From positions 70,173,664-70,237,663 of the forward strand of contig NC_134847.1 of assembly GCF_965363235.1 (NCBI RefSeq): a stretch of 64,000 nucleotides of DNA. Direction: 5' to 3'. The notes beneath the pieces are model-generated. The model had not been told where the DNA came from. It did no database searches and saw only the letters and a program-made list of their open reading frames with translations. Position numbers and translations under genes: made by a program. Positions 1,844 through 34,569 of the stretch are shown here, piece by piece. The stretch is from Mytilus galloprovincialis (Eukaryota). Position 1 is the first letter of the stretch. Every line of letters begins with the position of its first letter.

Positions 1844-1933
1844 AGTTTAGAATCTGATGGTCGAAAACAAGCAGCGAACAAAAAAGCTATGAGAATTTTA
1901 GCCGATGACTCAAGTTACTCAAGCGACTCCAGT
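1844..1933 (+). CDS. Candidate coding exon, phase 0 to 0, encoding SLESDGRKQAANKKAMRILADDSSYSSDSS
   Basis: Acceptor ttttcag at 1843, open frame of 30 codons, donor AGT|GTAAGT at 1934. Confidence 0.3.
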
Positions 1934-2888: not shown

Positions 2889-2973
2889 GAAGAAGAAAAT
2901 GATATGTTTCCGCCCATGAATACGACAAGAGGTTCAAAACTAAAAGTTTTTGACACTTCTACTGAAAGAATAG
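2889..2973 (+). CDS. Candidate coding exon, phase 0 to 1, encoding EEENDMFPPMNTTRGSKLKVFDTSTERI
   Basis: Acceptor tgtcacag at 2888, open frame, donor ATAG|GTAAAA at 2974. Confidence 0.3.
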
Positions 2974-5911: not shown

Positions 5912-6190
5912 GTTTATACCATACACTTATATCAACAGTGCAAAGAGGATGCTACAGTATGAACAAGCATAGTTCTAATTCAGTCATTAGAGACAGTGTA
6001 AAACAGTAAGTTGATGTAGATTGATATTTCTTTTACAAGTTCTCCTAAAGCTTAACAGACCTTGCATGGAAAAAAAAGTTAAATGAGTCATTTTAATTTT
6101 GGAAAAAATATGCAGGAATTTATTATTTTTATATTTAAAGTGTATCTGATACCATTTGTAATGAAAAAAATAAAACAATATATTTATAGT

Positions 6191-6413
6191 GGGTCTCATT
6201 GGGGTCTAAGCCTGACGCGGGATTGCCCATTTTTTGTAAGCGTGACACGTGAAAGTCAAATTATTGTGGCGTGAAAACGGGAAATGAGGTTTTGCGGGAC
6301 CCGGGAAATGACAAAAAAATGAGAATTGCTTACGTACATAGTGTAAGCGGGATACGGGAATCTGACAAAACAGTAAGCGGGATCCGGGATCGGAACCCCC
6401 CAATGAGACCCCC
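6191..6413. mobile_element. MITE of 223 bp with a perfect 14-bp TIR GGGTCTCATTGGGG and a putative 8-bp target-site duplication (hAT-like)
   Basis: 6191 gggtctcattgggg pairs with 6400-6413 ccccaatgagaccc. The flanks tttatagt (6183-6190) and tttatatg (6414-6421) match at 7 of 8 positions. Confidence 0.55.
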
Positions 6414-6651
6414 TTTATATGCTGCTTCTTTCAAAATACTAAGAAGGCCAATGTATGCAATGCACTTGACCCATAATATATGAAATAGTGCCATAGATTG
6501 GGTGACACAAAACTTATTTTAAGTCTTTGACAGTTATGTCAATAGATGTGTTTCTTTACAATATTTTCAGCTCTTGAACAGTCAGTGTCTATAAAGTTAC
6601 AAATAAAAGCTTGTTTATATGCCTTTTCTCATCTGATGATTAAATTTTCAG

Positions 6652-7283
6652 AGGAGAGAATATAGGGATAGAATCTGTCCAGGCTGCTGTGAAATCCTAC
6701 AAAGTAAGCACTACTAGTAATGGGAGAATTGATACGGAAACAGATAGGAATAAAGATAGAAATTTCTCATCCTTTTCACCTCCTTCATTTGGATCTAATG
6801 AAGAGCAGAGATATAGAAAAAATATAAAGGAGGAAGAAAGAAGGCAAGAGGAACAAAAAAGAATGATTTATCACAGTACCAAGGAAGACAGAGGAAGGGA
6901 TGATGAAAAGAAAAAGAGAACATTAAATAAAGAAGGGTTGAAGGAGCAGAGGTGTGAAAGAAAAAGGCAGGATGATGAAGCCAGATGGAGAGAAGAAATA
7001 AGGCAAGAGGAACAAAAACGAATTATTGATCACAGTACTATGGAAGACAGAGGAAGGGAAGATGAAAAGCGTTCTGAAAAGAAAAGGAGAACGTTAGATC
7101 AAGAAGGGTTGGAGAGACAACAGTGTGAAAGAAGAAGACAGGCTAATGAATCCAGGTGGAGAGAAGAAATAAGGCAATTGGAACTAGAAAATAAACAGAA
7201 ACTAGAAGAAAATGAAAGAGAGAGAGAAAAGATAAGAAATGAAAGAAGAGCTGCTTTCGTTGAAAGAAAAACAAAAAGAAATG
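6652..7283 (+). CDS. Candidate exon ending in phase 1, encoding a Glu/Arg/Lys-rich charged-repeat region with an internal repeat of about 55 aa (…EERRQEEQKRMIYHSTKEDRGRDDEKKKRTLNKEGLKEQRCERKRQ…)
   Basis: Acceptor ttttcag at 6651 and only one open frame (ORF 6689..7369). The donor ATG|GTATGAG at 7284 leaves a 1-nt overhang that completes an Ala codon with the first two bases of the 8041 exon. The sequence is purine-rich and low-complexity, so the open frame may be compositional. Confidence 0.3.
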
Positions 7284-8040
7284 GTATGAGTGAATTAAGT
7301 ATATATATTTTAAGTATTCCAAATATTGGAAATTTTTCAAATGGTCAGTTCATTGTGTGTTTAAATTAGTGGAAGCTGTTTTTACCATTGAATGATACAT
7401 GCATTTGTATGTGGAAAATTTTATGTCTTAGTATAGATGAGAGTACAGAAGGAAACTTTAGAATTTTCAATCAGCCATCACCTTGAACAAACTGTTGTGA
7501 TCAAATTGCAATTGTTTTCCATTCAGAAGTTTAGGCCCTTAAAGAAAGAATTTGTTGTAATTCAAAATTTATTTGCTTAGTTTCAAATGAGAGGTAGATT
7601 ATACCAATTGCAATTGATTTCAAAACTGATGACACCATGGCAAAAACAAAAAGGACCTAAAGACAGATAACAGTCTACAAAACTCACAAAAAAGAAAACC
7701 AAAACAAAAATCTTCCTTTTGTGAGGCCATAGAAAAAGATATCTTCTATTATGCTTTCTCTACCATTTCTTTGTTTTGGGAAGCTACCCTAAAGATTGGG
7801 GGTATATTTGAATGAGTGCTATTAAAATGACAATATGTACTCTATGTATTCAATACAAAAAAAATGCCCTAATTTTTTATCTTATGTAACAGGACCCACA
7901 AATATCATTTCAATTGGCCTAAAGCAAAATGTTATACCACAAACAACAACAATACTTTATTTTAATGATCACTTTTAATTTTGTAACCAGTAGTATTGAT
8001 TGTAAAATTAAGTCCTCTCATTTTATGTTGTATATTATAG

Positions 8041-8442
8041 CTGAACAGGCAGCCAGGTCACCAGTTTACAGAAGAGAAAAAATACAAGACTTACTATTGT
8101 TAGATGTCACACCACTGTCGCTTGGTATAGAAACAGGCAATTGTCACATGACACCTGTTATCAAACGTAATACAACAGTTCCTACTAGAAAGAGTCAGAC
8201 GTTCACTACTTCAGAGGACTACCAGATCAGTGTGTTAATTCAGGTTTATGAAGGGGAGAGAACTTTGACCAAGAACAATAACTCTCTGGGAAAATTTGTT
8301 CTGACTGGAATACCTGCTGCACCGAAAGGGGTACCTCAGATTGTTGTCACCTTTGATATTGATGCCAATGGTATTTTGACAATTTCTGCAGAAGATACAC
8401 TTACTGGAAAGAGGAATAGCCTTACCATTACCAATGACAAAG
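8041..8442 (+). CDS. HSP70-family exon, copy 1: the C-terminal end of the nucleotide-binding domain ('QAA'), the linker DLLLLDV, and the substrate-binding beta domain through ITNDKG
   Basis: Translation (A)[134 protein letters not shown] aligns with canonical HSP70 (…[38 protein letters not shown]…[11 protein letters not shown]…ITNDKGRLS). Acceptor tattatag at 8040 and donor AAAG|GTAGGG at 8443, phase 1 to 1. No nucleotide-binding-domain exon lies upstream in the window. Confidence 0.7.
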
Positions 8443-8924
8443 GTAGGGATTTTTATGCCCCACCTACAATAGTAGGGGCATTATGTTTTCTGGTCTGTGC
8501 ATTCATTCGTCTGTCTGTCCCACTTCAGGTTAAAGAGTTTGGTCAAGTTGACGTCCAATCAACTTGAAACTTTGTACACATGTTTCCTATGTACAATGGT
8601 ATCTTTCTACTTTTAATGCCAAATTAGATTTGTGACCACAATTTCAAGGTCCACTGAACATTGAAAATGATAGTGCGAGTGGGGCATCCGTGTACTATGG
8701 ACACATTCTTGTTAATGATTAGTTGACTACAAATGCCAAAAAATACAGCATTACTGTTTGTTTTGCAGTTCTTCATCTTTTTGTCATTATATAATCCTAA
8801 AATATCAATTATAACTTTATCATAATAACAAAAGAATCTTTAATAGTGAGGAAATTGGGAATATATTGCAATGAAAATTACTGTTGATGTTGATTTTTTT
8901 ATTTTTATTAACTTTGTTCTTTAG

Positions 8925-9458
8925 GTCGTTTGGGGTCAAAAGAAATAGATAAAATGGTCAATGAAGCAGAGAAATTCAAGGCTGAGGATGAACAACAGGA
9001 AAATTGTATGTCTACAAAGAATGCTTTGAAAGGCTATGCACTTAACATGGTATCAGCAATTGATTTTGAAAAACATGAAGTTTACAGAATCGAAAAAATA
9101 CAAGACCTACTTTTGATAGATGTCACTCCAATATCTCTTGGTATAGAAACAGTCTGTGGTCATATGACACCTGTTATCAAACGTAATACAACAGTTCCTA
9201 CTAGAAAGAGCCAGACGTTCACTACTTCAGAGGACTACCAGATCAGTGTGTTTATTCAGGTTTATGAAGGGGAGAGAACTTTGGCCAAGAACAATAACTC
9301 TCTGGGAACATTTGTTCTGACTGGAATACCTGCTGCACCAAAAGGGGTACCTCAGATTGTTGTCACCTTTGATATTGATGCCAATGGTATTTTGACAATT
9401 TCTGTAGAAGATAAGATTACTGGAAAGAGAAATAGTTTTAAAATTACCAATGACAAAG
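8925..9458 (+). CDS. HSP70-family fused exon: the start of the lid ([25 protein letters not shown]…AIDFEK) joined in frame to a second copy of the substrate-binding beta domain (…[42 protein letters not shown]…ITNDKG)
   Basis: Acceptor ttctttag at 8924, a continuous open frame of 534 nt, and donor AAAG|GTAAGG at 9459, phase 1 to 1. The second domain is about 90% identical in nucleotides to 8060-8442. The LRG|gt donor present in the 11364 copy is absent, so lid and domain are fused. Confidence 0.6.
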
Positions 9459-9628
9459 GTAAGGATTTTTAATTATTAGTTGACCACAAATGTCAAAAAT
9501 TGTCATACAGTTCTTAATCTTTTTGTCATTATATAATCCTAATATATCAATTTTAACTCTATCATAATAACAAAAGAATAATGAGAAAATTCAGAATATA
9601 TTACAATAAAATTTACTGCTGATTTTTT

Positions 9629-11342
9629 TATACGACAGCAAAAAATGAAATTTTTTTGGTGTATATTGGTATCAGGTTGGCGTCGTCGTCATCGTCCGAA
9701 GACATTTGGTTTTCACACTCTAACTTTAGTAAAAGTAAATAGAAATCTATGAAATTTAAACACAAGGTTTATGACTATAAAAGGAAGGTTGGGATTGATT
9801 TTGGGTGTTTTGGTTCCAACAGGTTAAGAATTAAGGGCCAAAAAGGGCCCAAATAAGCATTTTCTTGGTTTTCGCACAATAACTTAAGTATAAGTAAACA
9901 GAAATCTATGAAATTTTAACATAAGGTCTATGAACACAAAAGGAAGGTTGGGATTGATTTTGGGAGTTTTGGTCCCAACGAATTAGGGGCCAAAAGGGTC
10001 CAAGATTAAACCTTGTTTGATTTCATCAAAAAATGAATTATTAGGGTTGTTTGATATATGCCAAATCTAACCGTGCATTCAGATTCTTAATTTTTGGTCC
10101 TGTTTTCAAATTGGTCTCTCACAAACATGTTTAACCCCGCCGCATTTTTGCGCCTGTCCCAAGTCAGGAGCTTCTGGCCTTTGTTAGTCTTGTATCATTT
10201 TAACTTTTAGTTTCTTGTGTACAATTTGGAGTTTAGTATGGCGTTCATTATCACTGAACTATTATATATTTGTTTAGTGGCCAGCTGAAGGACACCTCCG
10301 GGTGCGGGAATTTCTCCTTGCATTGAAGACCTGTTGGTGACCTTCTTCTGTTGTCTGCTCTGTGGTTGGGTTGTTGTCTCTTTGGCACATTCCCCATTTC
10401 CATTCTCAATTTTATCTACATTTAGGTCCAAAGGGTCCAAAATTAAACTTAGCTTGATTTTAACAAAAATTGAATTCTTGGGGTTCTTTGATATGCTGAA
10501 TCTAAACATGTACTTAGATTTTTGATTATGGGCCCAGTTTTCAAGTTGGTCAAAATCGGGGTCCAAAATTATTATATTAAGTATTGTGCAATAGCAAGTC
10601 TTTTCAATTGCGCAATGGCAAGAAATATCTAATTGCACAGTATTGTGCAATAGCAAGAAATTTTCAATTGCACAGTTGTTGGAAATCATGCACTGAAGAG
10701 AACAGTATTATGCAATAGCAAGAAATCTTCAATTGCACAGTACTGCGCAATAGCAAGAAATATCTCATTGCACAATATTGCGCAATAGCAAGAAATTTTC
10801 AATTGCACAGTTTTGGGCGATAGCAAGAAATATTCAATTGCACAGTATTGTCCTGTTTTCAAATTGGTCTACATTAAGGTCCAAAGGGTCAAAAATTAAA
10901 CTTTGTTTGATTTCAACAAAAATTGAATATATGGGGTTCTTCAATATGCTGAATCTAACCATGTATTTAGATTTTTAATATTTGGGCCCGGTTATCAAAT
11001 TGGTCCATATTGAGGTCTAAAGGGTCTAAAATTGAACATTATTTGATTTCATCAAAAATTGAATTCTTGGGGTTCTATGATATACTGAGTCTAACCATGT
11101 ATTTAGATTTTGGATATTGGACCATAATAGGTAAATGTCCAATTTGAAATTTTTAAGTTTTTAAGTTTAAGTTCTTAGACCACATTCATTCTGTGTCAGA
11201 AACCTATGTTGTGTCAACTATTTAATCACAATCCAAATTCAGAGCTATATCAAGCTTAAATGTTGTGTCCATACTTGCCCCAACTGTTCAGGGTTCGAAC
11301 TCTGCGGTCGTATAAAGCTGTACCCTGCGGAGCATCTGGTTC
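9629..11342. mobile_element. Composite non-autonomous element of about 1.7 kb. It has a terminal hairpin tatacgacagc…, a CGT microsatellite, about 160-bp A-repeats, about 85-bp B-repeats (ggtccaaagggtccaaaattaaac…gatatgctgaatctaac…), about 36-bp C-repeats (gtattgtgcaatagcaagaaattttcaattgcacag), and a conserved tail …ccccaactgttcagggttcgaactctgcggtcgtataaagctgtaccctgcggagcatctggtt
   Basis: It lies in the intron of the second HSP70 duplicate. The matching intron of the first duplicate (8880-8924) lacks it, which gives an empty-site comparison. The right end carries TGCGGTCGTATA, the reverse complement of the left-end TATACGACCGCA. A 280-bp SINE-like element is nested at about 10120-10400. The minus-strand ORF 10207..10689 is spurious. 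Confidence 0.75.
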
Positions 11343-11363
11343 AATTTTAACTTTGTTCTTTAG

Positions 11364-11519
11364 GTCGTTTGGGGTCAAAAGAAATTGATCAAATGGTCAC
11401 TGAAGCATACAAATATCAGGCTGAGAATAAACAACATAGAAAATGTATTTCTGCAAAGAATGCTTTGAAAGGCTATACACTTAACATGGTATCAGCAATT
11501 GAATTTGAAAAACTCAGAG
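11364..11519 (+). CDS. HSP70-family lid exon, copy 2 ([52 protein letters not shown])
   Basis: Acceptor ttctttag at 11363 and donor AGAG|GTAAAT at 11520, phase 1 to 1. It is a paralogue of 8925-9082. Confidence 0.6.
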
Positions 11520-12307
11520 GTAAATTGAAAATGGATTGCAATGTAAAAAGAATGCTACAATGTGCAAATGGATGACTGTGCTACTAGAGCGTGAGTGATG
11601 AGGATATAATGGATTATATATATAGTGCTGAGCCATTATTGAACAATGACTTTCAGTCAACTATTGGAGCTTGAAGTGAAGTCATCAGGGGATATGCCAA
11701 GTTACTCATAGTAACACCTCAAAATAGATCACAGAAAACTGAGATCATTGTAAGCCTTCTAAATGTCATTTGCTGCAGTGCAGTATTATGGAATGGCTTG
11801 GCCTCGATTTGGTGGTGTGTAAATATTTTTGTATCAATAAAAATGTTTGTTGACTGCTGAAAAATGAATTAAAATTAAATTTAGCAATTTCTTTCTCTGT
11901 TTTTAATTTGTACTCCAAACCTAATACAAATGTAAAGGAACTGATAATTCCAACAAGGACCAAAAGTAAAGACAAACCCAGTAGATTTGTTATAATTGTA
12001 GTCAAATAAACAAATAACCAGTAATGAAATTTCCCCTCTATCATAAGAACAAAGGGAAGTAACTCACACCTTGTTTACTTCAAGGGAAATAACCTATTGA
12101 TTAAAGTTACAATTGTTATTAGCTGATTACTAGTATATATTAGTCACTTATAATCCTGTATATTGCATCATTTTACTAAAATTCACATGTCATTTATTAC
12201 TCATGTCATGTGTTGCCTGGATCAATTTACTATTTATAATATAGTATCAAATATGAAATTATTACTCTGGGAATGGAGCTATATAACATTCACTTTGTCT
12301 GCAATGT

Positions 12308-12452
12308 CCATTGGTCACTTCATTCACCTTGTCTTTCCATTGGTCACTTCATTCACCTTGTCTTTCCATTGGTCACTTCATTCACCTTGTCTGTCCATTG
12401 GTCACTTCATTCACCTTGTCTTTCCATTGGTCACTTCATTCATCTGTTTGTT
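12308..12452. repeat. Tandem repeat with a 29-bp unit (ccattggtcacttcattcaccttgtcttt), about 5 copies, in an intron
   Basis: Direct periodicity. ORFs 12163..12570 and 12311..12514 reflect it. Confidence 0.85.
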
Positions 12453-12480
12453 CAACAAATATTGTTCTCACTCTTTACAG

Positions 12481-12591
12481 AGAAACCGGTACTGCTGGAA
12501 AAATATGCATATAACACAAGATATTCATCTATGCTGGAAAGTGAAGAAATTGAAAGTGATACAGAAATGAGTTTTAATTTATTTGAAGGTG
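12481..12591 (+). CDS. Candidate exon, phase 1 to 1, encoding (E)KPVLLEKYAYNTRYSSMLESEEIESDTEMSFNLFEGG
   Basis: Acceptor ctctttacag at 12480 and donor G|GTAAGT at 12592. The split first codon (g+AG) gives Glu when joined to the previous phase-1 exon. It is an acidic stretch followed by a hydrophobic FNLFE motif. Confidence 0.4.
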
Positions 12592-13571
12592 GTAAGTCTA
12601 ATTGATATTGATTTATCTAATTGATATTGATTTCGAAATTAATTCATGTTGACTCTACTCTTAAGGAAGAACACCACTAATTCATGGTCCCATTGCTTTC
12701 TATGTTAAATTCCTCCATTTCAAGCAGGCACACCTCTTTCATTTTAAGTTCAAATAAAGTGGCAATCATTGCATGTCAAAGCAACACTTTATGGTGTCTT
12801 CTGAAAAAATCAACATACCTTTAATTGCATATAAGAAAGAGCTGGTTCCCCGAAATTTGGATGTACCAAAACAGGTACTTCAGATCTGACAAACAGACAA
12901 AATGTACCCTCTTTTTAAAATTTGGTGCAGTTTTTTTAATATTTAAAATTAAAAGTCCAAAAGTGTTTTACAATGATCACCAGTCCTTCAGCTTACATTT
13001 GATGCCAAAAATACCTAAATATCCTACATATTTTGAAAGTTACACTCATGCGTAGGAACTATTTTGCGTTAAACATGTACTACTTTCTGGTATGTGCTTT
13101 CTGGCCGGGCCCGAATTAGTGGTGTTACACCTTAAGGTATATTATGTTTCTCAGATTTAAGTTGCAGTTTCAGCCCAAAAATGGAATCTGGGGGGAAAAA
13201 GGCAAATCTGAAGGTGAAGACCTCCCATTTCTGCTGCCCAATGCAGTGTAAAAGTCTGGAAATTGCTAAAAGGAGAATGATCTACTGACAGTTTCAAAAT
13301 TGAGATACACTTTTGGAGTAACAACATCTGGTTACAGGTTTAGGTGAAATCAGTAAAAATAAAATGAAAAATTGGATAAGGATTGATTTTTTAAAATTCT
13401 CATCACAAACAGACTTCATAATAGGTGTGGTGATTGACAGTAATTTAAACATTTGAGGATTTTTTTTGGATATTTTAGACACTTTCTTCTGTTTACTGAT
13501 ATATATTTTCTGAAGTATTATATTGGAGCATGATGCATGACAACAAAATGCATTTAAAAATCTCATTGCAG

Positions 13572-13697
13572 AACCAGCTCCATTTGACATGATGCCAGTT
13601 AAAGACAGTTCAAAAGCAAAGCCAACTCCTAAACTTGAGTATTATGAGGAAAGTGAAAGTGAGGATGATGACTTAGGTTTAGGCTTATTTGATGCTG
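13572..13697 (+). CDS. Candidate exon, phase 1 to 1, encoding (E)PAPFDMMPVKDSSKAKPTPKLEYYEESESEDDDLGLGLFDAG
   Basis: Acceptor tctcattgcag at 13571 and donor GCTG|GTAAGA at 13698. The motif EESESEDDDLGLGLFD resembles the acidic C-terminal tail of ribosomal P-stalk proteins (…EESDDDMGFGLFD). Confidence 0.45.
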
Positions 13698-13789
13698 GTA
13701 AGATTAACATAGAATATTTTCAAAGTCTTTATAGGCCTCCTTACAGGACATAACATATAGGAAACCTGTTGTTCATCCGTCGTCAACAT

Positions 13790-14700
13790 GTTGGACATTA
13801 ACTCAAAAACTCTTTCACCAATTTGCATGAAACTTTGATGAATTGTTTATATCTATTGATGTGAGCTCCCTTATGATTTTCATAAATTTTGGATTTTATG
13901 TTTCAAAATTATGTGGGTACTATTTCATCAAAAAAGGGGGATTTTTCTAGTTTTTTCGGACAATTACCTTAAAATGCTTTGAGCAGTTTTCATGAAACTT
14001 TAATGAATTGTTTATATCTATTGATGTTAGTTCCCTTTATATTTTTATAAATTTTGGATTTTATATTTTGAGTTATGGGGTTTTATTTCATCAATAAAGG
14101 GGATTTTCTAGTTTTTCAGACATTAACTCAAAAATGGTTTGAGCCGTTTTCATGAAACTTGGGTGAATAGACAACTTTTGAATTTGATGCATTTCCGTCA
14201 AAAACTCTGGTTTTAGTGAACATCATTTGTGCGTTTAGGGGCATCATCACTTCCATTCTAATGTTGAGCGAGTGGTTGGAAAATTATAATACTATACTGC
14301 ACAAATTATTCGGCTAACTAAATTCTCATAATTGACAATCGGCACTGCTGTCATTAGGGAATTGTGATTAAGTACTTACAAAACAAAATTATTTCTAGTT
14401 TATCCACCACAATGACGATCACTAAGACGCTTGATGAACATAAATAGTGCAAGGATACAGGCGATCCCCTCTATCTGGTAATTAAAATCACAAAGGCGTG
14501 CCTAATAGACAAGTTTTTTCCGGTGACGGATGAACTCGAAAGTAGTCTATTGTTTATATCTATTGACGTGAGCTCCCTTATGGATTTTCATAGTTAGATA
14601 TAACATTTCTGAGTTATGGGTTTTTTTCATTAAAAAGTGTGATTTTTCCACTTATTGAACAATAACTCAAAAGTTCTTTCAGCAGTTTTCATGAAGTTGC
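13790..14700. repeat. Cluster of about 150-bp repeats (…aactcaaaa.tctttca.cagttttcatgaaactt..tgaattgtttatatctattgatgt.agctccctta..atttttcataaattttggattttat.tttc…)
   Basis: About 5 copies here. The same family recurs at 57880-58340 and 58740-58800. Confidence 0.8.
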
Positions 14701-15595
14701 TAAAAAAAATCAAATTTAAGATTTTCTAATATTTCTTCTGAAATTTGTGTTTTTCTACACATGCTACATAGCTTTCTTTAAATTAATACTAAAATACTTA
14801 TAATTACATCTAACTTCTATGTCATTTGGTCTCTGGTGGAGAGTTGTCTCATTTTCAATCATACATATTTTCTTTTTTTTTATCTTTAAGCTTTAACATT
14901 TCCTCTTAAAGATTTAAGGGGAGATAAGAACAATATTTCAAAAGATGAGAGATTTTAGATTATCTCCCATGGAAACTTATTAAAATCTTATTGTAATTTT
15001 ACATATGTTTCACTGAATAGAACCTGTTTAAATTCAAACTGGTGTCTTATTCTTAGGAATATAGAAGCTTAGTTTGGACATTTTTATAGCAATTCTAAAA
15101 TTCTCATTACCTTTTTGAATGACACTTCACAATGACAATTTGTATAGAAACTTTTTAAAGATACAATTTTATATGACCATTAAAGTGGAGTTTTATAGAA
15201 ATAAATAATGATAAAAAAAAGTTTTAAAGATAAAAGAAATAAAAGTTTTATAGAATTGAAAGTATCCTTTATATTCTCACCTTGCACTCTGATGTCTTGA
15301 CTTTATTTTTTATTGCAATTCTGAATTGGGTTAAATTTCATACGATTTGAAGAGGCTGATTTGATAAAACAAATTGCAACTGGGTCACAATTTTAAATGA
15401 CCTGCTATAAGTTGAGCAACACATGCAGTCTATTCACAGTAATATCATTATTTAGGCAAAACAAAGACTCTAGTAAGACATTTATGTGTGTCCACACTTG
15501 TATCTGTTTTAACTAGAAAAAGCGCTCATCCATGAAGTTATAACACTTATGATCTGACTTTTTTTACTGAGTAGGTATTTTGATTTCTGTAAAAA

Positions 15596-15805
15596 CTACT
15601 CGGGAACAAGATCACACCTGAGGCTGTTTATTCATGTGTGAAGGGTTCCATAATAATGTACCTTTAACAGTTCAACAGAGGACTGATAGATTGAAAACTA
15701 CTCGGGAACAAGATCACACCTGAGGCTGTTTATTCATGTGTGAAGGGTTCCATAATAATGTACCTTTAACAGTTCAACAGAGGACTGATAGATTGACCAG
15801 TGTTA
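15596..15805. repeat. Tandem duplication of a 105-bp segment
   Basis: 15596-15700 and 15701-15805 are near-identical. ORF 15736..15954 overlaps the duplication. Confidence 0.85.
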
Positions 15806-16250
15806 TTATCTCACTCCTGGATATTATTCTGGGTTGGGGACTATTGTTTACAAAATGTTGTTTGAAGAATCAGGTTTGTTTTATTTTTTATAATACAATT
15901 TATCCTAGAATTTTAAGTAGTGCATTTATTTATGGATATGTTTCTCATTTCTAATCTTTTATAAAGATTAAATTGTTGTTTTCCTGTTTGAAATGAAGGC
16001 TGTACTTTGACCAATAATTTTAATCTTTTTATACATTGGGTCTTATTGGCATTCATACCACATTTTGTTTATATGAATATGTAATAAAATTGATAGCTTG
16101 AGCGGTTTGAGAGTTAGATATTACTCCTCAAATTAGTCAGCAACTCCCATCAAGTACTCAATTGTCACTTAGAAGAGAAGGAATGCCCTTTATTGTCAAG
16201 CATCTAACCTCTGTTTTAAATACGTTTAGTGTCAAATTGGTCTTAATTTT

Positions 16251-17192
16251 TTATACAACCATTAAAAATTTTTGTGGTCGTATGTTGGTATCATGTCGTC
16301 GCCCGCGTCGCCTGAAAAGACATTAAGTTTACAGACAGTAACTTTGATTTTTAAGTGAATGGATCTCTTTGAAATTTAAACACAAGGTTTGAGACCACAA
16401 AAGAAAGGTTGGAATTGATTTTGAGGTTTATGGTCCCAACAGTTTAGGAAATAAGGGCCTTTAAAGGGGTCAAAATAAGCATTTTTATAAATTTTCAGAC
16501 AATAACTTGTAAGTGTATGGATCTTTTTGAAATTGTACTACAAGGTTCCATACCAAAAAAGGAAGGTTGGGATCGATTTTGGGGGTAATGGCCCTAACCG
16601 ATTAGGAATAATTAAGGGGCTAAAAACAATACTTTTCTAATACTTTGTGTAAATTACTTATTTCTTGACCAATTTCAATGGGATTATATTTTTGAATTTT
16701 TGGGGTTCTTTAATATGCTGAATTTAACAATGTATTAAGTTTTGGATTTTTGGCCCCATTTTTAAATTGAGGTTTAAAGGGTCCGAAATTAAACTTTATT
16801 TGATGGCATCAAAAATTAAATCATTGGGGTTCATTGATATGCTGAATATAACCGTGTATTTAGATTTTTGATTTTTGGTCCCATTTTCAAATTTGGTCTA
16901 CATTAAGGTCCAAAGGGTCCAAAATTAAACTTTGTTTCATTTCATCAAAAATTGAATTATTGGGGTTCTTTGATATGCTGAATCTAACGATGTATTTAGA
17001 TTTTGATTTTTGGGCCCTGATATCATATTGGTCCACATAGAGGTCAAAGGGGTCCAAAAGGTAAATGTCAAATTTAAAAAAATTAAGTTCTTAGACCACA
17101 TTCATTCTGTGTCAGAAACATATGCTGTGTCAAATATTTAATCACAATCCAAATTCAGAGTTGAATCAAGCTTAAATGTTGTGTCCATACCA
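16251..17192. mobile_element. Composite element of the same family as 9629-11342, truncated at its tail
   Basis: Left hairpin ttatacaaccattaaaaatttttgtggtcgtat, then a CGT microsatellite, A- and B-repeats and part of the conserved right arm. It ends within …gttgtgtccatacc. Confidence 0.7.
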
Positions 17193-17914
17193 GGGCTTCC
17201 AAAAAATATTTGAGCCAGCCGGACATTTTATATCTGATCCTGATTTTAATCCCTTAAAACTAAGTTGCAAAAGGCAATAATGTTAATCAGATGGCCATCC
17301 CAGTGATTGACATTAGATTAAAAAAAAAAAAACGATATTTAACTTTATTTTGATATGAATTTGATGTTCTTAAGTAAACTGTTAAATTGGCAGTGCATCA
17401 TTCGAAGTGTGCATATCACCGTGCTCATATCTGCTGCATTAGACTCTTTATTTGTGCAAAACATTATGGACTCCATACTTACCCCAACTGTTCTGTTTGA
17501 ACAAATATTTTACTGTCATCATGTTGGGCACCTTATTTCTATCCTCACTTAAAAGACCCAAGTATCAAGAAAATATTGTGCTTAAACACTTTAATATATA
17601 TATTTCTTAAAGGGGCACTAGCTGCCAAATTCATGGTCACTGATTTGACTCAAATTCTCATATTTTATTTAAAACAATGTAAAACATTTTTCCAAACCAT
17701 CAAAAGTATAAAATAAACAATTTACAGAACATGGTCTCAATAAGATGTAGCTTCATTTTGTGTAAATTTTAGCCAAGACGCCATCTAATTAACAATCGAG
17801 TTGACCTTATATGACCATATAAGCGATGTAAACATAAACATGGATATAAATAGATGAAGCAACTCGTGCAATTGGATTTTTAAAGGTCTGTTAAATTTTG
17901 TATTATAGATTAAA

Positions 17915-19390
17915 AATTTATGTTTATCGTCGTTTTTATGACGGCGTCGTTGTTGTCGTACGAAGACACATTGGTTTTTCGCACTATAACTTTAGTTTAA
18001 CTAAATAAAAATCTATGAAATTTAAACACAAGGTTTATGACCACAAAAGGAAGGTTGCGATTGATTTTGGAAGTTTTGGTCCCAACAGTTTAGGAATTAG
18101 GGGCCAAAAAGGGGCCCAAATAAGCATTTTATTTGGTTTTCGCACAATAACTTTAGTATAAGTGAATAGAAATTTATGAAATTTAAACACAAGTTTAAGG
18201 AACACAAAAGGAAGGTTGTGATTGATTTTGGGAGTTTTGGTCCCAACAGTTTAGGAATAAGGGGCCAAAAAGAGGCCCAAATAAGCATTTTTCTTGGTTT
18301 TCGCATCATAACTTAGTACAAGTAAATAGAAATCTATGAAATTTAAACACAAGGTTTATGACCATAAAAGGAAGGTTGGGATTGATTTTGGAAGTTTTGG
18401 TCCCAACAGTTTAGGAATTAGGGGCCCAAAGGAAAATTAAACTTTGTTTTATTTCATCAAAAATTGAATAATTGGGGTTCTTTGATATCCCTAATCTAAC
18501 TGTGTATGTAGATTCTTAATTTTTGGTCCCGTTTTCAAGTTGGTCTACATTAAGGTCCAAAGGGTCCAAAATTAAACATAGTTTGATTTTAACAAAAATT
18601 GAATTCTTGGGGTTCTTTGATATGCTGAATCTAAACATGTACTTAGATTTTTGATTATGGGTCCAGTTTTCAAGTTGGTCCAAATCGGGGTCCAAAATTA
18701 AACTTTGTATGATTTCAACAAATATTAAATTCTTGGGGTTCTTTGATATGCTGAATCTAAACATGTACTAAGATTTTTGATTATGGGCCAAGTTTTCAAG
18801 TTGGTCCAAATCAAGGTCCAAAATTAAATTTTGTTTGATTTCAACAAAAATTGAATCCTTGGAGTTTTTTGATTTGCTGAATCTAAACATGTATTAAGAT
18901 TTTTGCTGATAGGGCCAGTTTTCAAGTTGGTCCAAATCGTGGTCCAAAATTTAAACTTTGTTTGATATCAACAAAAATTGAATATGTGGGGTTCTTTGAT
19001 ATGTGCTGAATCTAACCATGTATTTAGATTTTTTATATTTGGGCCCGGTTATCAAATTGGTTCACCTTGAGGTCTAAAGGGTCCAAAATTGAACTTTATT
19101 TGATTTCATCAAAAATTGAATTCTTGGGGTTCTTTGATATGCTGAATCTTACCATGTATTTAGATTTTGGATATTGGACCATAATAGGTAAATTTCCAAT
19201 TTAAAATATTTAAGTTTTTAAGTTTAAGAACACATTCATTCTGGGTCAGAAACCTATGTTGTATCAACTATTTAATCACAATCCAAATTCAGAGCTGTAT
19301 CAAGCTTGAATGTTGTGTCCATACTTGCCCCAACTGTTCAGGGTTCGAACTCTGCGGTTGTATAAAGCTGTGACCTGCAGAGTACTGGTT
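17915..19390. mobile_element. Composite element of the same family, with a degenerate left end
   Basis: Three A-repeats, about nine B-repeats, and the conserved tail …ccccaactgttcagggttcgaactctgcggttgtataaagctgtgacctgcagagtactggtt. The minus-strand ORFs 18097..18309 and 18516..18764 are spurious. Confidence 0.75.
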
Positions 19391-20714
19391 ACCTTTATGA
19401 GAATGATTTTGTGTGGATCGAATCAGTTAATCAAATTATTTACCTTTGTTTCACTTTCAATGTTGACATTCTTTTCCTTTAAATACCTGTACACATACAA
19501 TGCAGGTGTTATTCTATCTCTTTCTACAGGTTTAAATTGGAGTTCACATGAATAGGGATTTAATGAGGTTGAATTATTCACTTGCAAGTGAATAATTCAT
19601 TATCAATGTTTATGAGCTTAATTTGATAAAATTGAACCATTTTAGCTGATAAAAGCAAATTATTAATTCACTATTTCACTTTCATAAATTAGTTATTGAA
19701 CAAAAAAAATCATACTTTTGATTTTTTATATATCTCGTAGCTAATGCCCCTTTAAAGGGGTATTAGCTGTCAAACAGTCAAATTCATGTTCACCGATTAG
19801 ACTCTAATTCTCATATTTGATTTATAACATTCTAAAAGTCACATGAATATAGATTCAATAGGTTCCAATTATTATAGTGGTGGCAAGAATGTATTTGTTT
19901 TACATACAGGTTTATATCAGCAATGTCTTTATAGACTAGTTAAAAAGTGGGGATGTTCAAAAATTTATCTCATCTGCACTATACATAGGCAGATCAGACA
20001 TGGTTCACCTGACCTTAACCTCATTTCAAGAGTCAGTGATTAAGGTTAAAGTTTTGTGTTCAGGTTTTTTTTTCAGATTCTATAAGTAAAGGGTCAACTT
20101 GATGTTGTGTATTAAATATAAAATGGAATGTTATGGAAAGAGGTACATGTCAGTTTGGCAGGTTTCATCTAAGAGGGGGAGGCTGGAGGGGTCCTTATCC
20201 AGAAATCCTGGGCTTAAAAAACATCCTGAGGTCCCAAATTTAAAGAAATTTAAATTCGAAATTCAAAAAAGAATTCCTGAATCCCAAAAGGATCAATCCT
20301 GAAATCCTGAGCTTAAAAACATCCGATCCTGACGTCCTGAAAAAAATGTCTGTCTTCCAGGGTTTATCTGACCTTGACCTTGATGTTGCTGATCATTGAT
20401 AAAGTTTAGTTTATGTGATACCAGTAGTATAACCTTTTGTGACTTTTAAATCAAACATGGTTAGTAAGGCAGGAATAAGATTGTTACACTGTTATTTTAT
20501 TAAATAGTCTCATTGAAACTGTCATAAAGATTTGATCAAAGTAACAGTAATAAATGAGTCTAAGAAAGATTGTATATAATATTTTTTATTTGGTTTGTTG
20601 TAAAAAGATATCTGTGTTACAATTTATTACAGTTTAGTAATATGTACAATATTTTTTTTAGGAAACATAGTAAAAGAGGATTTTGTATCAAAACCAACTC
20701 AACTGGAATCAGAT

Positions 20715-21622
20715 ATGATACACACAGGTGATACAGACATGGCTCCAGCCCGTACAATAGTACATGGAGGCATAGCTCACATGCCACAGTCTACACCTAG
20801 CTACAGGAAATGTAAACAGTCATCCTCAGTCCCCTCTAGCAGGAAGACAGATTTAGTCACAGGGTATACAGCACCAGTAAGTCAGAGAAGTCCAGTAATG
20901 CATCCCCAGAGTATGCAACTAACATCACCTCAGCAAGTGCAAGCATTGGCACCTGCAATGATGCAACCAGCATCTCCTCAGATACAGCAAGCATCGTTAC
21001 CAAAAATGATGCAACCCACATCACCTAAGAGACGCCAAGATTTTTTTGCCCAAAGTATGCAACGAGCATCACCTCAGGCAATGCAAGCATCGTCAACCCA
21101 AAGTATTCAGTCGCCTGCTCCTGCAATAATGGTTTCTGATGCAAGTCCTGAAAAGCATAAACCAATTTCATTATCAAAGTATAATGAAAACCAAAAAAAG
21201 TCTGGCTGTATGGGATCACCTGATAGTAAAATATGTATGGGTGGCTCAGCAACTCCAAGACAACAAACAACAAGTTCATCAGAAAGTGGAAGTCACTGGG
21301 ACACTGCTTCACCCCAATTAGCTGGCAATACAAGGTTTAGAGGAGGGGTGACACCACCTTCACTCTCACAAGTGCCTCAAATATCAAGGAGACCACTGCC
21401 AACACCCTCTCCAGCAGCTGTTAAAACAGATACCAGTAATAAAACACCATCTTCCTTTCTAGCAATACCAGAGCAACAGAGATCAAAAATAACACCAACT
21501 CAACCACATCTACAGGCTGAGGAGATACCAGGGGCACCCAGGCCTAGAGCTCCTGCCAGACGGATGTCTGGGTCCTTAGGTTTTCAGTCCAAATCATGGG
21601 GTTCCCCAGCCTCTGTACTGCA
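20715..21622 (+). CDS. Gene model B exon 1, ending in phase 2. It may start at ATG 20715 or 20739. It encodes a Pro/Ser/Gln/Ala-rich low-complexity region with MQ(P/A)SPQ repeats
   Basis: ORF 20715..21626, donor CA|GTAAGT at 21623. The frame is also open upstream back to an acceptor at 20660, so the exon may be internal rather than first. Confidence 0.5.
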
Positions 21623-22285: not shown

Positions 22286-23408
22286 GTATGTTGTCTGGGT
22301 TTTATATATTCTTCAGTTATGGAATACCATCAACATTTTGAGGATTGATTTCCAACGCATGCCTGTATGAGGTTGTGTGTTACTATATAAAATGTCCTTA
22401 ACTTTCTAACATAGGTTTTTAACTTTATATGCATGAAAGGGAGTTCTAAAAAAAATAAAGCCAGTAGAATCTTTATTATTTACTTATTTAAACATAAAAA
22501 GTAGATTTTTGATATAATGTTTTCTATTGAAATTTTTTCTTTTTTTTTAATTTTAGTTATTGAATACATTTAAGAAGGCCTCATTTTTTTGTTTTTCTTT
22601 GTCAAACACAAAAGAACAAATTTTGATAGGAACAATTGTTAAAAATAAAATCAGAACTCAACTTTTTAAGCCCCACCTAGGAGCATTGTTTTTCAGCCTA
22701 TGCATCTGTGTGTCTGTTCATTCATTCATCCATTCCTTTGTCAGTCTCTCCTGCTTCAGATTAAAGTTTTTCAGTTTAAAGTTTTGGGTCATGGTAGTTT
22801 TTGAGGAAGTTAAGGTCCAATAAATGCTTAGTTCACATGTCCTCTATGATATGATCTTTCTTATCTCAATGCCAAAATTAAAGTTTTGACCCCAATGTCA
22901 CAGTGCACTAAACCTAGAAAATGATAGTGTGATTGGGTCAGAATTGTATTATGGAAACATTCTTATGATAAAATCAGTGTTGAACAGATTGAAAACATTA
23001 TATTGATATTCAATATATCCAACACTACATGCCTTTTTGTGAGTTCAAACATTTTCATTATTTAAAAGATAATACTTTTACTCAGGCAAACTAATCAATG
23101 AGTTATGGATTTCTCGTAAAATGGTCCCAGTAAATAAACTTGACAGAGAACAATAGCTATTGTATTTATTGAATGGAACAATAGAACTGACAAAATTTAA
23201 ATAGATTGACCAATAGGAAATGACTCTGTAGAAAAATTTAATTTAGTTCCCAATACAGTTTGAAATGACTACTGTAATAGTTGATGTCTATGCAGTATAT
23301 AGATTACTTGATCAACATTCCAGTTTTAAATATAGGTTAGAGACTAAGATTATTTTGTCATCAATCAAAAGAGTGAAATAAAAATATGTTTACTGGATAT
23401 ATTTACAG

Positions 23409-27027: not shown

Positions 27028-29150
27028 TATACGACTGCAAGCGTCGTCCAAAGACACTTAGTTTCCGAATAATAACTTTAGTTTAAGTGAATGGATTTCT
27101 ATGAAATCTAAACACAAGGTTAACAACCACAAAAGGCAGGTTGGATTAATTTGGGGGTTATGGTTCCAACAGGTTAGGAACATGGGCCCAAAAAGGGGTC
27201 AAAATAAGTATTTTTCTAGTTTCCAGACAATTACTTGTGTGTAAGTGTATGGATCTTTCTGAAATTGTACCACAAGGTTTCATTCCATAAAAGGAAGGTT
27301 GGGATTGATTTTGGGGGTTATGGCCCAAACTGTTTCGGGATCAGGGGCCAAAAAGGGGCAGAAAACAATACTTTTCTAATACTTTGTATAAATTGCTTAT
27401 TTCTTGAACAATTTCAAGGGGTTTTATTTTTGAATTCTTGGGGTTCTTAAATATGCTGAATCTAACCGTGAATTAAGTTTTTGGAATTTGGTCCCTGTTT
27501 ATAAATTGGTCCACATGAGGTCTAAAGGGTCCAAAATTAAACTTTGTTTGATATCATAAAAAATTGAAAGATTGAGGTTCTTTTATTTGCCAAATCTATT
27601 CAATGACATGTATTTAGATCTTTAATTTTTTAATTTTTTCAAATAGGTCTACATTAAGGTCCAAAGGGTCCAAAATTAAACTTACCTTGATTTTAACAAA
27701 AATTGAATTCTTGAGGTTCATTGATATGCTGAATCTAAACATGTGTTTAGATTTTTATACGGCCGCAAAAATTATAATTTTTTTTGTCGTATATTGGTAT
27801 GATGTTGGCATCTGTGTCGTCGCCGTCCGAAGACATCTGGTTTTCACACTATAACTTTAGTATAAGTCAATAGAAATCTATGAAATTTAAACACAAGGTT
27901 TATGACCATAAATGGAAGGTTGGGATTGATTTGGGGAGTTTTGGTCCCAACAGTTTAGGAATTAGGGCCCAAAAAGGGCCCAAATAAGCATTTTTCTTGG
28001 TTTTTACACAATAACTTTAGTATAAGTAAACAGAAATCTATGAAATTTTAAAATAAAGTTTATGACCACAAAAGGAAGGTTGGAATTGAATTTGGGAGTT
28101 TTGGTCCCAACAGTTTAGGAATTTGGGCCAAAAGGGTCCAAAATTAAACTTTGTTTGATTTCATCAAAAAATGAAGTATTGGGGTTCTTTGCTATTCCAA
28201 ATCTAACCGTGTATTCAGATTCTGAATTTTTGGTCCTGTTTTCAAATTGGTCTACATTAAGGTCCATAGGGTCCAAAATTAAATTTAGCTTGAATGTAAC
28301 AAAAATTGAATTCTTGGGATTCTTTGATATGCTGAATCTAAACATGTACTTAGATTTTTGAATATGGGCCCAGTTTTCCAGTTGGTCCTAATTGGGGTCC
28401 AAAATTATTATTTTAAGTATTGTGCAATAGCAAGAAATTTTCAATTACGCATTATTGCACAATAGCAAGAAATCTTGAATTGCACAGTATTGTGCAATAG
28501 CAAGAGATTTTCAATTGCACAGTATTGCACAATAGCAAGAAATTTTCAATTTCACAGTATTGTGCAATAGCAAGAAATCTTCAATTGCACAATAGCAAGA
28601 AATTTTCAATTGCACAGTTTTGCACAATAGCAAGAAATATTCAATTACACAGTATTGTCCTGTTTTCAAATTGGTCTACATTTAAAAGGTCCAACAGGTC
28701 AAAAGTTAAACCTTGTTTGATTTCAACAAATATGAATATATGGGGTTCTTCAATATGCTGAAAGGAACCATTTATTTACATTTTTAATATTTGGGCCCTG
28801 TTATCAAATTGGTCCACATTGAGGTCTAAAGGGTCCAAAATTGAACATTATTTGATTTCATCAAAAATTGAATTCTTGGGGTTCCATGATATGCTGAATC
28901 TAACCATGTATTTAGATTTTGGATATTGGACCATAATAGGTAAATGCCCAATTTAAAATTTTTAAGTTTTTATGTTTAAGTTCTTAGACCACATTCATTC
29001 TGTGTCAGAAACCTATGTTGTGTCAACTATTTAATCACAATCCAAATTCAGAGCTGTATCAAGCTTAAATGTTGTGTCCATACTTGCACAAACTGTTCAG
29101 GGTTCGACCTCTGCAATCGTATAAAGCTGCACCCTGCAGAGCATCTGGTT
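27028..29150. mobile_element. Two adjacent composite elements of the 9629 family, 27028-27763 and 27764-29150
   Basis: Hairpin starts tatacgactgcaa at 27028 and tatacggccgcaaaaatt…ttgtcgtata at 27764. The second ends with the conserved tail …gcagagcatctggtt at 29150. The minus-strand ORF 28115..28345 is spurious. Confidence 0.7.
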
Positions 29151-29550
29151 GATTATGGGCCCAGTTTTCAAGTTGGTCCAAATTGGGGTCTTAAATCAAA
29201 CTTTGTTTGATTTCTACAAAAACTGAATATATGGGGTTCTTTGATATGCTGAATCTAACCATGTATTTAGATTATTGATATTTGGACCCTGTTATCAAAT
29301 TGGTCCACATTGAGGTCAAAAGGGTCCAAAATTAAATTTTTTTGATTTCATCAAAAATTGAATTCTTGGGATTCTTTGATATGCTGAATTAATCCATAGC
29401 CATGTATTTAGATTTTGGATATTGGACCATAATAGGTTAATTTAAATTCAGAGCTGTATCCAGTTTGAATGTTGTGTCCATACTTGCCCCAACTGTTCAG
29501 GGTTTGACATCTGCGGTCGTTTAAAGCTGTACCCTGCGGAGCATCTGGTT
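29151..29550. mobile_element. Additional fragment made of B-repeats plus the conserved right arm and tail
   Basis: …ccccaactgttcagggtttgacatctgcggtcgtttaaagctgtaccctgcggagcatctggtt ends at 29550. Confidence 0.6.
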
Positions 29551-30165
29551 AATTATGGAGTTTGCATAATTTCTTAATAAACTCCATGTTTATTCTGTAT
29601 TTTTATGTTCTGTGCTTCACACAACACTATTTATACAAAATACATTTTAATACAGAATAAACATTGAATGTAATAAAGATTTCAAGCGCAAGAAATTATG
29701 CAAATTCCATAATTAAAAATTATTCCAAGTTGAAATAAAAGCCTGTTTGATTCTCTTTGCACTGGTTTTGTACGAGTGCTGTCTTTTTGGAAAAAATTTG
29801 TGGTTAGTTTGTCTTTGTGGTTGATTAATTGTTTCTAAACATTAAATTAAGACTAGAATTCTTTTTCAAATAAAAATTGCACTTACATATATTTTATATT
29901 ATAATAAGATATGCCTTAATCATGATAACTGAAATAAACACAAGGCTCTGTACTAAAATGATAGACATTATTGTCACATAAAGGCAAGGCAGTAGTTGAA
30001 TAACTCAAGTTATCTTACTAGCTCCATCACTGTTAATAACTTCTATATATAACTCTAAATGTCCAAATATCAAAACTTTATTTAAACTACTTGGATGCAG
30101 ATTTGTCTCATGGACAATCATACTGACATCTTCTTATTTATAATAATTTGATTTGACTTTTTCAG

Positions 30166-33560: not shown

Positions 33561-34569
33561 TCTCCTGGATGTTGCCTAGATACTGGACTTCTGTCATTGC
33601 TTGAAAATGGTTATGCAAAACAAAATAAAAATTGATGCAATAGTATAGAATTGTACCTTCATTGTCTTTATCCTGTTAGGCATTATAATTGTCAATAACG
33701 ATAAATTGAGTTTGTGAACAAAAGATTAATTTTCATCATACCATTTACGATCAGGGATCAGTTATACAACTTTAATATCATTTAACAGATTATTTATTAT
33801 AATGAGATTGATTTTTTGTTTTACATGAGGCTTCACATTTGTATTTCTTTATCTATTTACAATTTGGTTATAAAAAAAATGTGATAATTAGTTCAGGTGA
33901 TATTGTCCAAAAAAGTAGTAGAACAATGCTGTTGTTGTATATATCTGCAGAATACAGTGGCGGATCCAGAAATTTTCATAAGTGGGGGCTCATTTACTGC
34001 CTAAGAGGGGGCCCGCTCCAGTCATACTTCAGTGATTCCCTATATAATCAATCAATTTTTTCCCAGAAAAATCCTATAAATCCGCCTCTGGAATACACTT
34101 TGACTTATATGTAATGATCAAAATGAAAGATATGTTGCAGATATTAGTTAAATAAACAAGTTATAATTTTTCAATTTTACTATTTTTCAATTCATAATAA
34201 TAAAAAAAAAAATATTGATAAAAAAATGTCTCCATCCATTAATGATTTATTGTTATCATTTCACAATTACAAATAACAATTTATTGAGAATAAAAAAAAA
34301 ACACTTCACATTGATTATTTACTTAATTTAATTGTGTCATTATGCAGCTGATTGAAAATTCATGGAAGGTTTTAAAGATTTTGGTTCATTTAATAATCAT
34401 GTTTACAAAATTTGTATATTGGACTTTATTACATGAAGAACAATAGATGAATTTTAGTTTTAAAAATGGCAAAATTACTTCTTTTCTGCAAAAAATTGAT
34501 TGAAAAATGTCAAGAGCAGGCTGCACACATTTGGGTTATTTTTCATAAAGACCAACCCTTTGTAAATTA

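Follow-up and report, generated by a model that had tools for sequence, protein, structure and literature searches.

An intron-bearing HSC70 fragment duplicated in tandem between phase-matched candidate exons of Mytilus galloprovincialis

HSP70-derived exons and the domains they encode

A 64,000-nucleotide (nt) stretch of the Mytilus galloprovincialis genome (contig NC_134847.1, positions 70,173,664 to 70,237,663; hereafter the window, with all coordinates given as window positions on the + strand unless stated otherwise) contains three putative exons derived from HSP70. These exons, at 8041-8442 (exon A), 8925-9458 (the fused exon) and 11364-11519, encode HSP70 residues ~379-567 in the order beta subdomain of the substrate-binding domain (SBD-beta), lid plus a second SBD-beta, and lid. 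This arrangement had been proposed in a first-pass annotation and is borne out by the translations and by the match of the spliced product to the Pfam HSP70 family (PF00012, E=2.3e-106), which consists of two stretches, covers profile positions 379-551 and places the product in the family by homology. A profile built from 53 full-length HSC70s scored each SBD at 1e-57 to 6e-64, and cytosolic HSP70s outscored BiP, DnaK and mortalin as matches to the spliced product. The nearest solved chain was HSC70 1YUW, residues 380-553 (PDB HSC70 match 1e-69), and the HSPA1A SBD 4PO2 was also close. Identity to solved SBDs is 65-70%, a level at which a predicted structure would show the SBD fold irrespective of any use of the sequence.

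Exon A encodes the end of the last ATPase-domain helix, the DLLLLDV linker and SBD-beta copy 1, and translates as (A)...ITNDK(G). Both a DLLLLDV and a DLLLIDV linker were found, and residues ~385-512 of HSC70 align without gaps in both copies, identifying two units of linker and SBD-beta. The exon at 11364-11519 translates as (G)...AIEFEKLR; reading through the GT at 11520 extends the frame to ...EKLRGKLKMDCNVKRMLQCANG, followed by a stop codon at 11573-11575, and this extension still aligns with HSC70 '...EKLKDKISEEDK'. Every boundary of the HSP70-derived exons is in phase 1, as had been observed before, and conforms to the AG/GT consensus, with 6/6 splice sites intact.

The missing parts of HSP70 were searched for by tblastn with a bivalve HSC70 and with the 53-HSC70 profile, run on the six-frame translation without filtering at an E-value limit of 50. 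No match to the ATPase domain (profile positions 1-353) was detected on either strand of the whole 64-kb window, in agreement with the first-pass annotation. With 8,040 nt of sequence before exon A in the window, the absence of an ATPase exon holds for the window alone. All tblastn and profile matches were confined to profile positions 354-567. Apparent homology upstream of the 8041 acceptor (to 7980; positions 354-378) was rejected, given 3/20 identities, the AT-rich acceptor sequence there and the presence of an intron at this point in canonical genes. At the other end, homology extends to profile position 557 in the first copy and to 567 in the second, with the lid ending after helix B, and nothing matching positions 568-649, which include the lid C-terminus and EEVD, was found downstream (after 11575) in any frame. 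The HSC70 fragment is 3´-truncated as well as 5´-truncated. Of the hallmarks of a canonical chaperone, the hydrophobic linker and SBD-beta are present; an ATPase domain in the window, a complete lid with EEVD and family-level conservation of the SBD are missing.

Origin of the fragment and its internal duplication

Exon A begins and ends, and the lid exon begins, at phase-1 intron positions of two canonical HSC70 loci, that of the gastropod Nucella lapillus (L002) and that of an invertebrate HSC70 on an ENA contig (L085). Exon A begins ag/CT GAA CAG GCA GCC, compared with ag/CT GTG CAG GCA GCC in L085, in keeping with the earlier observation that it opens mid-codon where the 'AVQAA' helix would continue; this start is the ancestral HSC70 acceptor, in phase 1. 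The 3´ end of exon A (GAC AAA G/gtaag) and the start of the lid exon (ag/GT CGT TTG) are also like those of canonical loci. Identical ends and phase were seen in exon open reading frames (ORFs) from many invertebrates (P0122-P0130), and in a search of 5.8 billion proteins such genomic ORFs gave the best matches to exon A. Canonical cytosolic HSC70/HSPA8-type genes of invertebrates share with the locus the 'AVQAA...NDKG' exon with phase-1 introns on both sides, the DLLLLDV linker, SBD-beta and the first part of the lid, at 65-73% protein identity.

The intron after NDK/G is kept in both copies and exon A starts at the ancestral acceptor, which is not the pattern of a processed pseudogene. A retrocopy of HSP70 was therefore ruled out, and the ancestral phase-1 intron positions together with the retained intron point to a DNA-level partial copy of an intron-bearing HSC70 gene. 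The 5´ breakpoint falls within the intron before exon A and the 3´ breakpoint 55-70 codons into the last HSC70 exon, such that the copy took in the penultimate coding exon (linker plus SBD-beta), the next intron and 55-70 codons from the start of the last exon (HSC70 residues 513-567). For dating, comparison with the canonical L085 exon gave a nonsynonymous divergence (dN) of 0.20 and a synonymous divergence (dS) of ~1, which is saturated; the introns were not alignable.

The unit of exon, intron and lid is duplicated head to tail, introns included, as claimed in the first-pass annotation. The 8063-8455 segment matches 9079-9471 at 92.6% identity, 8908-9074 matches 11347-11513 at 89%, and the intron segments 8709-8891 and 9466-9626 match at 87.6% over aligned bases (20 mismatches and two small indels in 161). 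The two lid copies are homologous up to 9074, and homology to exon A restarts at ~9079, which corresponds to 8063; the duplicated segment, originally ~0.75 kb, runs from ~8063 to 9074, that is, from 22 nt inside exon A to lid codon 50. This head-to-tail exon-intron-exon repeat with one definable junction has the form of an internal tandem duplication. The earlier annotation, which was right about the anatomy (a 5´-truncated HSP70, tandem SBD/lid units and a phase-1 design), had attributed the fused exon to loss of the 'LRG/gt' donor in lid copy 1. Since the junction at 9075-9079 lies a few bases before this donor, however, the donor was outside the duplicated segment and was never present in copy 1.

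The two introns differ in length because of later repeat insertions, one of ~265 nt in copy 1 and a composite satellite-bearing repeat (9624-11346) that entered copy 2 after the duplication. Part of the copy 1 insertion (8545-8710) is found again at 22807-22964, and the same intron contains a short hairpin at 8455-8481. The composite repeat belongs to a family with four copies in the window (9624-11346, 16247-19390, 27044-29554 and 34567-36660) and with internal 35-bp, ~136-bp and ~160-bp tandem sub-repeats. Vertebrate HSPA8 introns host U14 small nucleolar RNAs (snoRNAs); Rfam gave nothing credible for a snoRNA or other RNA across 6000-13800, which includes the retained introns, and no tRNAs were found. 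On the - strand, an 81-codon open stretch (stop to stop) at 8238-8480 recurs at 9230-9472, having been duplicated mechanically with the SBD exons.

The copies have not diverged evenly. The SBD flanks (first 84 nt plus last 54 nt) differ at 23/138 positions, the lid copies at 18/147 and the intron copies at 20/161, corresponding to 12-17% divergence in these three regions, while the central SBD tract (8148-8387 versus 9164-9403) differs at 5/240 (~2%). The contrast between the central tract and the flanks (Fisher 4e-7) or the intron (Fisher 4e-5) extends to silent sites, which makes gene conversion likely, and 8148-8387/9164-9403 is probably a conversion tract. Overall, the sequence comparisons give good support to an origin by partial copying of an HSC70 gene, followed by an internal tandem duplication, the insertion of repeats and, probably, gene conversion.

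Local repetition of these exons was also seen elsewhere. In the Nucella HSC70 locus (15376-16041 and 19339-19848 of L002), the start of the AVQAA exon is repeated three times and its ...ITNDKG end twice, and a segment is duplicated in the annotated N. lapillus protein of this locus (P0012). The exon pair may be prone to duplicate locally, or else the assemblies may misbehave at this point.

Candidate exons of a host gene

The HSP70-derived exons lie among other, non-HSP70 exon candidates on the + strand (Table 1). That the upstream candidates are in phase and not HSP70 had been noted before and holds; those downstream are likewise in phase, so that the unit would sit inside a host gene and not simply at its 3´ end. 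Spliced together, the nine candidates form a single open frame of 1031 codons, and omission of the three HSP70 exons leaves 667 codons that are equally open. The phase compatibility, the carried-along splice sites and the exon-respecting boundaries are those of a shuffled module, with flanking exons that are mostly candidates. For the large S/P/Q-rich exon at 20662-21622, weak homologues at 36-43% identity were found on short metagenome contigs (P0242-P0244; shared motifs PAIMVSxASPE, KKSGCMGxPD and ITPTQPxLQ..PGAPRPR..RR(M/L)S), which indicates that a real gene runs on the + strand. As to the identity of the host, Pfam gave nothing. A query with its N-terminal part found one contig from a relative (Logan contig L001, run SRR29152238), and an exhaustive search of representatives with a spliced model of the host exons alone found this contig again, together with three weak matches to the S/P/Q-rich exon on short contigs.

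Table 1. Features of the HSP70-derived unit and candidate exons around it
Feature	Position	Strand	Description
Candidate host exon	1844-1933	+	In phase; sequence unique within the window; prediction
Candidate host exon	2889-2973	+	EEENDMFPPMNTTRGSKLKVFDTSTERI; phase 0 in, phase 1 out; sequence unique within the window; prediction
Exon U (candidate host exon)	6654-7283	+	K/E/R-rich; acceptor 6652-6653; phase 1 in and out; joins exon A as G/CT (Ala)
Exon A	8041-8442	+	Full 'AVQAA...ITNDKG' exon of ancestral HSC70; phase 1 at both ends
Intron copy 1	8443-8924	+	Ancestral HSC70 intron after NDK/G; ~265-nt insertion (~8447-8712) absent from copy 2
Fused exon	8925-9458	+	534 nt; lid copy 1, then SBD-beta copy 2; translation (G)...ITNDK(G)
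Lid copy 1	8925-9074	+	GRLGSKEID...AIDFEK; aligned to HSC70 residues ~513-561; 5´ part of fused exon
Duplication junction	9075-9079	+	In frame, FEK/HE/VYR; from three-way register alignment
SBD-beta copy 2	9080-9458	+	3´ part of fused exon; counterpart of 8064-8441, at 92.6% identity
Intron copy 2	9459-11363	+	9466-9626 homologous to 8709-8891; last 17 nt identical to those of copy 1
Lid copy 2	11364-11575	+	Alternatives: exon 11364-11519 with donor GAG/GTAAAT at 11520 (phase 1), or terminal exon with TGA at 11573-11575
AATAAA	11836-11841	+	261 nt past the stop at 11573-11575; judged from sequence, could be the poly(A) signal for a short isoform
Candidate host exon	12481-12591	+	Phase 1 in and out; EKPVLLEKYAYNTRYSSMLESEEIESDTEMSFNLFEG; joinable from 11519, or from 7283 if the HSP70 exons are skipped; predicted from its ORF and splice consensus
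Candidate host exon	13572-13697	+	Phase 1 in and out; EPAPFDMMPVKD...EESESEDDDLGLGLFDA; prediction
Candidate exon	20662-21622	+	Large, S/P/Q-rich; phase 1 in, phase 2 out

Exon U, directly upstream of exon A in this model, is also open on L001, where the sole length difference is an in-frame 159 nt. Substitutions between the two sequences amount to 6.5-8.7% within the exon, with a dN/dS of ~1.4, and to 6.5-11% across the introns on either side of it. Exon U and the HSP70-derived exons appear to share the same behavior, in that the frame is kept and the sequence is free to change. Within exon U, 6829-7184 consists of two ~57-codon repeat units that are 80% identical, and L001 carries one hybrid unit and is 159 nt shorter; the difference in unit number is consistent with unequal recombination between units. 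We also considered the start of exon U (ESVQAAVKS) as a relic of the 'AVQAA' helix and rejected it, as nucleotide alignments were no better than those with shuffled sequences and the HSP70 profile misses exon U. Upstream, 6188-6415 is a 228-nt insertion relative to L001 with terminal inverted repeats (GGGTCTCATTGGGG ... CCCCAATGAGACCC), which resembles a miniature inverted-repeat transposable element and is absent from the relative.

The downstream candidates at 12481-12591 and 13572-13697 each end in an acidic motif, ...ESDTEMSFNLFEG and ...EESESEDDDLGLGLFDA, with a strong resemblance to the conserved C-terminal tail of the ribosomal stalk P proteins (EESEESDDDMGFGLFD), to which ...EESESEDDDLGLGLFDA is 12/16 identical. 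In both cases the motif is internal, being followed by a splice donor, and not C-terminal; a regular expression finds two such motifs in the window and Pfam calls neither. A 29-bp tandem repeat (12307-12442; 4.7 copies, perfect to near-perfect) lies directly upstream of the acceptor of the 12481 candidate. More generally, the window is AT-rich (30-35% GC) and full of satellites and short interspersed repeats. These include a satellite array at 1-1727 (61-bp unit, 27.7 copies) and another of 3.5 kb at 54351-57851 (30/61/91-bp unit), which yields many spurious long ORFs. An isolated 18S rRNA fragment, far from any rDNA unit, lies on the - strand at 49311-49524 (Rfam SSU_rRNA_eukarya, 102 bits, model 607-1116 gapped).

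Possible frame constraint and fates of the fragment

The three HSP70-derived exons contain zero stops in 364 codons and are gapless relative to canonical HSC70 in protein-level alignments. Since the duplication, 46 substitutions and no indels have accumulated across 525 exonic bases, compared with two small indels per 20 substitutions in the homologous intron. When the 46 post-duplication substitutions were simulated, the probability that no stop arose was 0.12-0.20, and that of no frameshift was 0.16-0.006 for indel:substitution ratios of 0.05-0.14, the upper values being taken from the local introns. The joint chance of zero stops and zero frameshifts, for the post-duplication period only, is ~0.001-0.03. 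These values are suggestive of selection on the reading frame, although they overstate the case, since the locus was picked for its open frames.

The interpretation we favor, with roughly even confidence, is that the HSP70-derived exons are in-frame exonized HSC70 fragments under frame-only constraint. According to this model, an HSC70 fragment would have been copied at the DNA level, in sense orientation, between non-HSP70 phase-1 exons of a fast-evolving + strand gene. A later internal tandem duplication of ~0.75 kb would have fused lid copy 1 in frame with SBD copy 2, after which repeat insertions enlarged both introns and gene conversion homogenized the SBD centers. The three exons would be spliced into host transcripts either as in-frame cassettes (7283>8041 ... 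11519>12481) or so as to form an alternative 3´ end that stops at 11573, with selection acting mainly on the open frame and not on the amino-acid sequence. Because the ancestral HSC70 introns and the candidate host introns are all in phase 1 and the six splice sites fit the consensus, the exons are most likely spliced into host transcripts. They are ordinary in size, keep native consensus sites, have short introns on either side and lie in sense orientation in what would be a transcribed gene, and the spliceosome should recognize exons of this kind. As donor and host share phase 1, inclusion would not trigger nonsense-mediated decay. Constraint on the frame alone also predicts what is seen, amino-acid change at the neutral rate without frame disruption.

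The close rival of exonization, which we regard as distinctly possible, is that the exons are an unused relic. They would then be pseudo-exons, lying within an intron of the host or between genes, that splicing includes seldom or never; they would drift neutrally, and the open frames and intact splice sites would reflect survivorship in a sequence chosen for just this property. The first-pass annotation had already named the right two alternatives, a decaying paralogue and a chimeric gene, and the present evidence does not separate them cleanly. Several observations weigh against exonization or in favor of a relic. It had been suggested that dN/dS between the two domain copies be measured. For the whole SBD we obtained a dN of 0.059, a dS of 0.143 and an omega of 0.41 (Fisher 0.019); this omega is driven by an unusually large number of synonymous differences in the flanks, and the conversion tract confounds it. 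Nonsynonymous divergence matches the intron divergence of 0.124, with values of 0.126 for the SBD flanks and 0.134 for the lid, and the lid has 14 amino-acid changes against one silent change (omega >=1, that is, at least 1). The ratio relative to dS and the comparison with the intron thus give an equivocal answer, and with nonsynonymous change at the intron rate purifying selection on the amino-acid sequence cannot be claimed.

In addition, of the columns that are invariant in the 53 metazoan HSC70s, 32/128 are replaced in copy 1 and 40/125 in copy 2 (25-32%), as are 13-17 of the ~83 columns shared also with a bacterial DnaK. The IKRNTT and FDIDANG motifs are preserved and the ETAGGVMT loop is altered. 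In terms of the residue roles in DnaK/HSP70 SBD structures, the five hydrophobic pocket positions are kept, and the positions of the arch over the binding cleft are changed. The truncated lid without EEVD, the free insertion of repeats into both introns and the equally open host isoform that skips the exons also fit a relic. Apart from exon U and the exon at 20662-21622, moreover, the host exon candidates are ORF and splice-consensus predictions.

Database searches point the same way. Among 5.8 billion proteins, none was more than 73% identical to the spliced model or to exon A alone, the matches being canonical HSP70s only, and no orthologue, close full-length paralogue, or transcript-derived or junction-spanning ORF was found in the collections searched. 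With no match above 73% identity in these collections, the donor paralogue cannot be named. Database proteins with two SBDs (P0001-P0005 and P0012) proved to be exact-repeat annotation artefacts, and a scan of metagenome contigs with the fused exon returned 80 loci, all canonical HSP70/DnaK, picked up via the FDIDANGI pattern.

A relic does not, however, readily account for the zero frameshifts and stops in ~1.1 kb next to an intron that has indels, with the low joint chance given above, nor for a duplication junction that is in frame. Six consensus splice sites, exons of ordinary size, short introns and sense orientation would also be expected to lead to splicing recognition, as exonization proposes.

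The locus could instead be part of a full-length but aberrant HSP70 paralogue, with ATPase exons upstream of the window and exon U plus small exons inserted between the parts, which we consider improbable. Just 8,040 nt precede exon A in the window, and in L002 the distance from the ATPase exons to the AVQAA exon downstream of them is 4.6-13.8 kb; exon U, being phase 1 at both ends, could occupy that intron, and its start, ESVQAAVKS, is faintly like AVQAAILS. On the other hand, no ATPase match was found in the 8 kb upstream or in the whole window at E=50, three consecutive in-phase non-HSP70 exon candidates fill the upstream space, and the ESVQAAV likeness is not supported by nucleotide alignment or profile. 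A 210-residue insertion in the last ATPase-domain helix would moreover not give a working HSP70, and the databases contain no full-length relative above 73% identity. Finally, an assembly artefact, with the second copy an uncollapsed haplotype or a mis-join, might be suspected from the exact-repeat two-SBD database proteins (P0003, P0004 and P0012) and from the local repeats of these exon ends in the Nucella locus, but is very improbable given 12-17% divergence outside the conversion tract (judged above the typical allelic level), no runs of N in the window, different repeat insertions in the two introns and a junction that is a clean in-frame fusion within an exon, unlike a contig-end duplication.

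Partial gene duplicates, exon shuffling via phase-matched (symmetrical 1-1) introns and internal tandem duplications are all well known. The locus shares with such cases intron-respecting breakpoints and carried-along splice sites, with donor exons and candidate recipient exons all in phase 1, so that insertion preserves the frame. Internal tandem duplication with gene conversion is likewise ordinary for partial-duplicate loci, while the transfer into a host transcript is here inferred. Compared with canonical HSC70, the locus has no ATPase domain in the window, a lid that ends near residue 567-575 of ~650 and no EEVD, and its peptide-binding module is doubled in tandem and flanked by unrelated exons. 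Each unit (linker, SBD-beta and lid start) is equivalent to the isolated HSP70/DnaK SBD constructs (1DKX/1DKZ, 4PO2 and 5XI9). Those constructs, which bind peptides without nucleotide control, are laboratory truncations of working chaperones, whereas the arrangement here is natural, tandem, heavily diverged and known from sequence. An exposed interdomain linker can reportedly occupy the SBD and drive oligomerization (PMC3696110).

HSPA13/STCH-type proteins are ATPase-only members of the Hsp70 family. The plant Hsp70T, which is without the C-terminal motif, is a naturally truncated family member (PMC10687569). Hsp70T and HSPA13/STCH indicate that HSP70 genes with missing parts can persist, but they retain the ATPase domain, whereas here it is missing and the peptide-binding part is kept and doubled. 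Neither the literature searched, bivalves included, nor the protein collections yielded a description of an ATPase-less or tandem-SBD relative of HSP70.

Were the locus unused, it would be an ordinary gene-fragment relic, showing only that frames and splice sites may stay intact for some time and that automated annotation could label such a sequence a truncated or tandem "HSP70". If instead the HSP70-derived exons are exonized as we favor, the product would comprise two ATPase-less peptide-binding modules with a shortened lid, capable only of passive peptide binding without ATP control. A translated lineage-specific chimera, in which two such modules with shortened lids are combined with the long, charged K/E/R-rich segment and, in the long isoform, with the P-protein-like acidic motifs, and which serves as a passive, ATP-independent client-holding or adaptor protein, is a more doubtful proposal. 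If spliced and translated, the locus would provide a natural protein with two HSP70 peptide-binding modules in use and no ATPase, and it would be a case of exon shuffling from a housekeeping chaperone gene, via phase-matched introns, caught in the act.

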